DNA of 4,782 nucleotides from a virus (taxonomy: Duplodnaviria > Heunggongvirae > Uroviricota > Caudoviricetes): IMG/VR virus record IMGVR_UViG_2648501235_000004, positions 1-4,782 of that record, one strand, 5' to 3'. Positions 1 to 3,000 of this stretch are shown one piece after another. Within the stretch, counting starts at the first letter, position 1. Each line of letters begins with the position of its first letter. Made by a program: the position numbers.

Positions 1-3000
1 AGGGCGTGAGCTTCCTGCTCCGTCTGACCGTGACAGCGGATGACGGCAGTGAGCGGCTGGTCAGCACGGCCCGGACGACGGAAACCACATACCGCTTCAC
101 GCAACTGGCGCTGGGGAACTACAGGCTGACGGTCCGGGCGGTAAATGCGTGGGGACAGCAGGGCGATCCGGCATCGGTATCGTTCCGGATTGCCGCCCCG
201 GCAGCGCCGTCGCGGATTGAGCTGACGCCGGGCTATTTTCAGATAACCGCCACGCCGCATCTTGCGGTTTATGATCCGACGGTACAGTTTGAGTTCTGGT
301 TCTCGGAAACGCGGATTACCGATATCAGGCAGGTTGAAACCACAGCCCGCTATCTTGGCACGGGGCTGTACTGGATAGCCGCCAGTATCAATATCAAACC
401 GGGCCATGATTATTACTTTTATATCCGCAGTGTGAACACCGTTGGCAAATCGGCATTCGTGGAGGCTGTTGGCCAGCCGAGTGATGATGCATCCGGCTAT
501 CTGGATTTTTTCAAAGGAGAGATAGGGAAAACCCATCTGGCTCAGGAGCTGTGGACGCAGATTGATAACGGTCAGCTTGCGCCTGACCTGGCTGAAATCA
601 GGACGTCCATTACGGATGTCAGCAATGAAATCACGCAGACCGTCAATAAGAAACTGGAAGACCAGAGTGCGGCAATTCAGCAGATACAGAAGGTTCAGGT
701 TGATACCAGTAATAACCTGAACAGTATGTGGGCTGTGAAGCTGCAACAGATGAAGGATGGACGCCTTTATATTGCGGGTATTGGTGCCGGTATTGAGAAT
801 ACCCCGGACGGCATGCAGAGTCAGGTGCTTCTGGCTGCAGACCGGGTGGCATTTATTAACCCGGCGAATGGTAACACCACTCCTGCACTGGTCACACAGG
901 GCGGACAGACGTTTATTAATGAGGCGCTGATCAAGTTCCTTATTGCTCCCACGATTACCAGTGGTGGCAATCCTCCGGCATTCTCCCTGACACCTGACGG
1001 AAAGCTGACTGCTAAAAATGCGGATATCAGTGGCAGTGTGAATGCGAACGCCGGGACGCTCAACAACGTCACGATTAATGAGAGCTGTACTATTAAGGGG
1101 ATGCTTGATGCTAACCAGGTGCGTGGTGATTTTGTAAAAACGACAGGGCATCGATTTCCGCACCCCGGAGAATACCCACAGGGTTCACTTACCGTTCATA
1201 TTAAGGACGATCATGCCTTTGACAGGCAGATTATAATTCAACCAATCATGTACGGTGCACCACCATATTTTAGTAAAAATGATGGCGCTAATATCTACGA
1301 TACCTGCAGATTAATTGTGCGCAAAAATGGCAATGTAATCTATGACAAATCCACTAGTGGTTCGAAAAGGACAACAGTCGTGTACAGCAATATCATTGAT
1401 ATGCCAGTGGGGGACGGAGATGTAATATTAACATTTGAAGTTCAGTCGAGCGGCAGTGGAGAGCCCAGAACATGGATCAGTGATTTAATGGTCTCGGTAA
1501 CGAAAAAAGCCGCATCCGGTATCAGTATCAGTTGAAATTTTTATAACCCCAATACGGGCGCCAGAAATGGCGCCTTTTTTATTGCAGAAAAGCGAGAGGT
1601 AATTATGCGTAAAGTTTGTGCAGCCATTTTGTCCGCAGCCATCTGTCTGGCCGTATCCGGTGCGCCTGCATGGGCGTCTGAACATCAGTCCACACTGAGC
1701 GCAGGGTATCTTCATGCCCGTACGAACGCACCCGGCAGCGATAATCTGAACGGGATTAACGTGAAATACCGTTATGAATTTACGGACACGCTGGGGCTGA
1801 TTACGTCTTTCAGTTATGCCGACGCAGAAAATGAACAAAAAACGCATTACAGCGATACCCGCTGGCATGAAGATTCCGTGCGTAACCGCTGGTTCAGCGT
1901 GATGGCGGGGCCGTCTGTGCGCGTGAATGAATGGTTCAGCGCGTATGCGATGGCGGGGGTGGCTTACAGCCGTGTGTCGACATTCTCCGGAGATTATCTG
2001 CAGGTGACCGACAACAAGGGGAAAACGCACGATGTGCTGACCGGCAGTGATGACGGTCGCCACAGCAACACGTCTCTGGCGTGGGGGGCTGGCGTGCAGT
2101 TTAACCCGACCGAATCCGTGGCCATTGATATTGCTTATGAAGGCTCCGGCAGTGGTGACTGGCGCACTGACGGTTTCATCGTGGGTGTCGGTTATAAGTT
2201 CTGATTAGCCAGGTAACACAGTGTTATGACAGCCCGCCGGTTCAGGCGGGCTTTTTTGTGGGGTGAATATGGCAGTAAAGATTTCAGGTGTACTGAAAGA
2301 CGGCACAGGGAAACCGGTACAGAACTGCACCATTCAGCTGAAGGCAAAACGTAACAGTACCACGGTCGTGGTGAACACGGTGGCCTCAGAAAATCCGGAT
2401 GAAGCCGGGCGTTACAGCATGGACGTCGAGTATGGTCAGTACAGCGTTATTCTGATGGTGGAAGGATTCCCGCCGTCACATGCCGGGACCATCACCGTGT
2501 ATGAAGATTCCCAACCGGGTACGCTGAATGATTTTCTCGGTGCCATGACGGAGGATGATGCCCGTCCGGAGGCACTGCGCCGTTTTGAACTGATGGTGGA
2601 AGAGGTGGCGCGTAACGCGTCCGCAGTGGCACAGAACACGGCAGCCGCGAAGAAGTCAGCCAGCGATGCCAGCACATCTGCCAGTGAGGCGGCAACCCAT
2701 GCGACTGATGCCGCAGGCTCAGCACGCGCAGCCAGCACGTCCGCCGGACAGGCCGCGTCGTCGGCTCAGTCAGCGTCTTCCAGCGCAGGAACGGCATCAA
2801 CAAAGGCCACTGAAGCGGAAAAAAGTGCTGCCGCTGCAGAGTCCTCAAAAAGCGCGGCGGCCACCAGTGCCGGTGCCGCGAAAACGTCAGAAACGAATGC
2901 GGCAGCGTCACAACAATCAGCCGCCACTTCTGCATCCACCGCGACCACGAAAGCGTCAGAAGCAGCCACTTCAGCCCGGGATGCGTCGGCTTCAAAAGAG

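Follow-up and report, generated by a model that had tools for sequence, protein, structure and literature searches.

The J gene on this stretch of DNA very probably ends in a rare allelic form of the lambdoid C-terminal receptor-binding domain, one that has been moved as a cassette by recombination. The window, by which we mean the whole stretch of 4,782 nt analysed (positions 1 to 4,782 of IMG/VR record IMGVR_UViG_2648501235_000004), is filled by three plus-strand genes, namely the 3′ part of J (1,533 nt), lom and stf, and has this J-lom-stf gene order in common with lambda. Its nearest complete-genome context is an Escherichia coli prophage adjoining torT, in which the whole lambda-like series of head and tail genes is present in order. 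The genes, and the feature that follows J, are these.

Positions 3–1535, plus strand: 3′ part of J (tip attachment protein, central tail fibre), 510 residues with the stop codon at 1533–1535; the open reading frame extends past the 5′ edge of the window.

Positions 1556–1583, plus strand: terminator-like hairpin and T run 3′ of J, at the same site as annotated terminators of phages 21 and mEp460.

Positions 1605–2204, plus strand: lom (Ail/Lom outer-membrane beta-barrel; Pfam Ail_Lom, E 1.3e-126; annotated likewise in relatives), context lying outside the module.

Positions 2263–4716, plus strand: stf (side tail fibre; Pfam phage_tail_N, Phage_fiber_2 and Collar), context only.

A second terminator-like hairpin with a T run is found 3′ of lom (nt 2231–2260), so that two such sites were found against a chance expectation of 1.1 in a 1-kb scan. 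Within stf, nt 2700–3650 encode several hundred residues of Ala/Ser/Thr-rich repeats, which create many spurious long open reading frames on both strands. Homology to E. coli stf ends at about nt 4690, and the stf frame stops at 4716 inside an IS3-family element: nt 4695–4782 are 100% identical to IS3-family element end/transposase loci and are present in 2,127 of 5,426 E. coli genomes. The point at which stf homology stops, taken with the end of the element, indicates that stf is interrupted near nt 4691. The prophage may thus be left with J as its sole functional receptor-binding protein.

The J fragment is colinear with residues 649–1131 of lambda J (E 4.5e-197) and matches, in order, the Pfam domains Ig_J, Ig_J_second, Phage_Tail_Tip (PF09327) and Ig_GpJ_C (PF12421), all above cutoff. 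The last of these sits at the extreme C-terminus of J, after PF09327, where fragment residues 390–510 cover profile positions 17–135 of 135 with a score of 108.4 bits against a cutoff of 26.2. A tblastn comparison of the domain with lambda J is likewise significant (E 1e-25). The segment thus genuinely belongs to the family of receptor-binding domains found at the C-terminus of J.

The predicted fold agrees with this assignment. An AlphaFold2 monomer model has a pLDDT of 70, a moderate confidence that follows from the shallow alignment available for prediction, the homolog search having yielded almost exclusively 434-type fragments. The top four Foldseek matches of this model are 8xcj, 8xck, 9wcb and 9wca (E 1e-14 to 1e-16), the first two being lambda gpJ with and without LamB and the others a gpJ chimera of A8 with and without OmpC. 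The tip is therefore predicted to be an Ig-like beta-sandwich that most resembles the lambda and A8 gpJ domains.

At the DNA level the domain is set off from the rest of J by abrupt changes in similarity. Nucleotides 1–1088 are around 90% identical to lambda-like phages, and the match ends there. When nine phage J genes were compared pairwise with blastn, similarity to other J types ended between nt 1087 and 1142 and resumed between 1464 and 1502, the exact positions depending on the partner. The sequence-only reading had described a lambda-like upstream J with a boundary near nt 1090, and both statements hold, the boundary appearing as a sharp break in homology at 1087–1142. These limits define three parts.

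Positions 960–1142, plus strand: 5′ homology arm, the conserved end of the beta-prism fibre, where comparison with five other types gives 37–48 identities in 56 residues.

Positions 1143–1463, plus strand: unique core of the receptor-binding domain, 321 nt or 107 codons, with a GC content of 43% and GC at third codon positions (GC3) of 0.40.

Positions 1464–1604, plus strand: 3′ homology arm, which takes in the final strands of the domain, the stop codon of J and the spacer between J and lom, with about 87–93% DNA identity to several other J types.

The core showed no DNA similarity to anything in 50,697 phage records, nor to the nine phage J genes compared. A DNA search of the same phage records with nt 1086–1535 gave matches for the first 56 nt only.

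A further change in similarity is visible upstream, in the alpha-helical shaft of J. Pairwise blastn finds no DNA similarity between nt 556–725 and lambda, 434 or mEp460, and the same nucleotides match phage 21, ev099 and PhiR46_1 at about 90% identity. The shaft is 26 residues longer than that of lambda, and so represents a second mosaic segment within J.

Protein comparisons show the window allele to be distinct from all other types compared. The strong divergence from lambda J that had been suspected is borne out: over the last 149 residues identity is 42.3% with lambda J and does not exceed 48.7% with any J in the 50,697 phage records. We clustered 79 full-length domains, drawn from the phage set, from the homolog search and from 1.84 billion representative proteins, at 70% identity. 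At least 13 clusters resulted, and the window allele groups solely with its E. coli twin. It falls outside the lambda-type cluster (42–44% identity, so that no high identity to lambda J was found), outside that of A8 and phage 21 (47–48%), and outside that of 434 and mEp460 (51–55%, with other loop lengths). Among the 1.84 billion representative proteins, the best full-domain match is at 50%, and values of up to 60% are reached over partial stretches only.

The allele is also rare. It occurs in 24 of 5,426 complete E. coli genomes (about 0.4%), in copies that are 98.4–100% identical, and in six IMG/VR contigs; the E. coli lysogens are scattered strains, many of them from poultry. Scans of 185,579 species-representative genomes and of the JGI metagenomes did not find it, the sole match in each case being one spurious 18-residue hit, and no cultured phage in INPHARED (50,697 phage records) carries it. 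Intermediates between about 55% and 98% identity were not seen in any of these searches. In one strain, E. coli SM107, a copy of the cassette lies on a 111-kb plasmid (NZ_CP130669.1, 67631–68080) and another on the chromosome; the plasmid may be a phage-plasmid.

The differences between types are not spread evenly along the domain. In an alignment of the window domain against eight further J tips, which cover five other types, the strands are conserved, as are the turns DDHxFDRQ, NG and IDMPxGxG. Both anchors named in the sequence-only reading, FDRQI and the terminal GISIS, are present; FDRQI is kept in most types and reads FDRQV in the Stx/A8 type. Every inter-type insertion or deletion, along with the lowest identities, is confined to four predicted inter-strand loops.

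Positions 1152–1181, plus strand: variable loop 1, 10 residues, with an indel and 3–4 of 10 identities to other types.

Positions 1260–1301, plus strand: variable loop 2, 14 residues, a predicted loop with indels and 1–4 of 14 identities.

Positions 1359–1370, plus strand: variable loop 3 (GSKR), with 0–1 of 4 identities and an extra 2–3 residues that none of the eight other aligned tips has.

Positions 1452–1484, plus strand: variable loop 4, 11 residues, with indels and 2–6 of 11 identities.

Together the four loops set the window allele apart from the other types in both sequence and length, save that loop 1 has the length seen in phage 21 and A8. Loop 4 is 1–3 residues shorter than in the lambda, phage 21, PhiR46_1 and 1720a-02 types and exceeds that of the 434 type by one residue. 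In lambda, the domain enters the mouth of trimeric LamB by four bottom loops, L1–L4 (PMC11101478). Matching of predicted secondary structure suggests that the four loops of the window allele correspond to these contact loops.

Three known systems lie closest. The lambda gpJ domain (8xcj, 8xck; LamB) shares the position at the end of J, the PF12421 match and the framework motifs FDRQI, NG, IDMPxGxG and KK..GIS, and is the best structural match. It differs in having only 42–43% identity over the last 149 residues, no DNA similarity in the domain and all four loops different in sequence and length, and its GC content is 55% against 43% in the window. The type comprising 434, mEp460 and ev099 is closest by sequence (51–55% identity): of the types compared it keeps DNA similarity deepest into the domain, up to nt 1139–1141, with a resumption at 1497, and the last 10 residues of its C-terminal strand are identical to those of the window. 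Nevertheless, its loops 1 and 2 are longer, by six and four residues respectively, and its core is unrelated at the DNA level. Finally, phage 21 and the A8/Stx type (9wca, 9wcb) have the same family, fold, loop 1 length and GISIS ending, with 47–48% identity to the window domain. The window allele cannot be equated with the A8 variant of Brödel et al., since A8 is of the Stx/phage 21 type. Nor, apparently, is it among their A8/1A2 variants, as four words of 14–16 nt from the module are absent from the supplementary sequences, in which line breaks could hide matches.

The base composition of the module also differs from that of its surroundings, though less starkly than at first supposed. GC content is 54.3% over nt 3–1089 and 43.3% over nt 1090–1535. 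The fall that had been proposed at about nt 1090 is thus real and the profile of J is non-uniform, but the figures originally attached to it, 63% before and 35–40% after, fit short stretches only: values near 65% are confined to nt 1–250, with about 51% across nt 300–1089, and the lowest 150-nt windows, at 37–40%, lie within nt 1201–1450. On entering the domain GC3 drops from 0.56–0.61 to 0.40, GC1 from 0.54–0.56 to 0.49 and GC2 from 0.41–0.44 to 0.40. Since GC2 is essentially flat while GC3 falls most and GC1 less, the drop is compositional, and amino-acid composition was ruled out as its source.

The domain is the lowest-GC stretch of the window, yet no extreme outlier: GC is 43% or lower in 5.6% of the 321-nt windows here and in 8% of those in a related prophage. 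Receptor-binding domains of other types have a GC content of 47–52%, and that of lambda 55%. A mild dip in GC is common at the J tip, and that of the window allele is the deepest among those compared. The lower GC3 suggests that the cassette spent a period of its evolution in another genomic setting. A low-GC donor lineage was not found in the species-representative genomes, the JGI metagenomes or the library of 1.84 billion proteins. A second dip, to 38–44%, is seen at nt 4043–4430 in distal stf, and the AT-richest stretches of the window are its two receptor-contacting tips, those of J and stf.

Evidence that the module has moved comes from comparison of seven E. coli and IMG/VR loci that carry it. 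The core is 99–100% identical across all seven, and the 3′ arm (1464–1604) is 100% identical, while J nt 601–900 either match at 94% or give way to an unrelated segment, and identity in lom ranges from 87% to 98%. For example, nt 901–1800 are 99–100% identical to EC5502, yet in the adjoining stretches of J, lom and stf the difference amounts to 4–18%. The same cassette, at 99–100% identity, is therefore found beside J and lom segments that differ by 4–13% or have been replaced altogether. A core that is nearly identical while its flanks differ implies that the same tip has been transferred among different J backbones. The idea of a swapped C-terminal module of foreign composition, first raised from the sequence alone, is thus upheld by sharp break points, an identical core in differing flanks and the drop in GC3.

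As to mechanism, a cassette of about 320–450 nt would travel between lambdoid prophages by homologous recombination, presumably through the two conserved arms, one lying upstream where the beta-prism fibre ends and the other downstream in the last J strands and the J-lom spacer. The working gpJ chimeras made by Brödel et al. with A8 and 1A2 are joined at lambda residue 964, within the same conserved upstream stretch; natural gpJ C-termini are thus exchangeable close to the natural break zone of the window (PMC11338833). A swap of the J tip is ordinary phage mosaicism, and the present case is an expected example that leaves understanding of the system as it is.

Low GC and divergence could also arise under relaxed selection, if the prophage were defective and the module a relic in the course of decay. 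The interruption of stf by an IS3-family element is in keeping with this, in that the prophage may be degenerating, but lambda PaPa, too, has no working stf and is viable. Moreover, the J frame is intact to its normal stop, all the framework motifs of the family are kept, and the module is 98.4–100% identical in 24 genomes and six IMG/VR contigs while its flanks differ, as expected of a conserved, recently exchanged functional cassette. Pseudogene decay is accordingly rejected, on the open frame and the near-identity of the module in many genomes, and we consider it very improbable.

With the module taken as a functional cassette, the question becomes which receptor it recognises. Trimeric porins are the receptors of the characterised relatives: LamB for lambda, LamB and then OmpC and OmpF for phage 21, and OmpC for A8, 1A2 and Gifsy-1. 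Phage 21 (OL657228) uses LamB natively, gains OmpC by one J mutation and comes to use OmpF thereafter (bioRxiv 10.1101/2023.04.13.536812; PMC11336670). A8 binds OmpC (PMC11338833; PDB 9wcb), as does 1A2 (PMC11338833). In Gifsy-1, OmpC is needed for DNA ejection, and J reportedly also attaches to OmpX and BtuB for adsorption. By analogy with these relatives, the target of the window allele would most likely be a trimeric porin, although a non-porin target may be used, given the binding of OmpX and BtuB by Gifsy-1 J. If the solved relatives are a guide, three copies of J would form the tip of the central fibre, and the tip loops would reach into a trimeric porin of the outer membrane through its outward-facing opening. 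The tip would be spread apart on binding, and the rearrangement set off in this way would open the tail. A search of the literature on the receptors of ECOR-derived PhiR phages and of other J types produced nothing relevant to the window allele.

The sequence-only reading predicted for the divergent module an outer-membrane receptor different from LamB; we regard this as probable, OmpC and OmpF being examples. In its favour are the identity of only 42–43% to the lambda domain, with all four variable loops rebuilt, and the use of OmpC by most of the non-lambda types tested (A8, 1A2 and Gifsy-1). The nearest type, that of 434 and mEp460 at 51–55%, points the same way, OmpC being the receptor of phage 434 in the older literature. 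Against it, phage 21 uses LamB natively despite a domain that is 49% identical to that of lambda and 47% identical to that of the window, and its receptor use can be altered by a single mutation, that of lambda by a few, which makes divergence a poor predictor. The A8 domain is 81% identical to that of phage 21. Since lambda and phage 21 share LamB at 49% identity while A8 uses OmpC, choice of receptor is not tracked by overall identity. A receptor other than LamB does not, then, follow from divergence alone, and the sequence points to no single receptor, but such a receptor is plausible and would be the better guess. The pairing of lambda and phage 21, native users of LamB with such dissimilar domains, also counsels caution in sequence-based receptor prediction throughout the J family.

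That same pairing lends some support to the opposite view, in which the module still binds LamB and is an antigenic or allelic variant fitted to the LamB variants of certain E. coli lineages. LamB loops do differ among strains and affect the mode of binding, as the A384S effect illustrates (PMC11101478), and the scattered, often poultry-derived lysogens would suit such a specialisation. The loop lengths of the window allele are, however, unlike those of both LamB-using types, and we consider continued use of LamB improbable. Recognition of an E. coli surface protein that would be new as a receptor of lambda-like central fibres, such as OmpN, PhoE, NmpC or a non-porin, is a minority prospect, possible but rather unlikely. 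As an overall estimate, we place a variant of OmpC first, at a little under an even chance, then LamB and another porin (OmpF, PhoE or OmpN) as equally improbable candidates, with something else less probable again.

What is new here is an allele of a known domain family; the modular exchange of J tips is already well known and exploited in engineering. The range of cells open to a lambda-like phage, or to a delivery particle derived from lambda, is set by its J domain cassette, and swapping of the domain is already in use to retarget lambda-derived particles (PMC11338833). The allele is absent from 50,697 phage records and present in only about 0.4% of complete E. coli genomes. Should its target be a new porin or a new variant of one, the retargeting toolkit would be broadened and the prediction of receptors from sequence would gain a data point; should it be a new surface protein, the gpJ cassettes available for lambda-based delivery would gain a further specificity.
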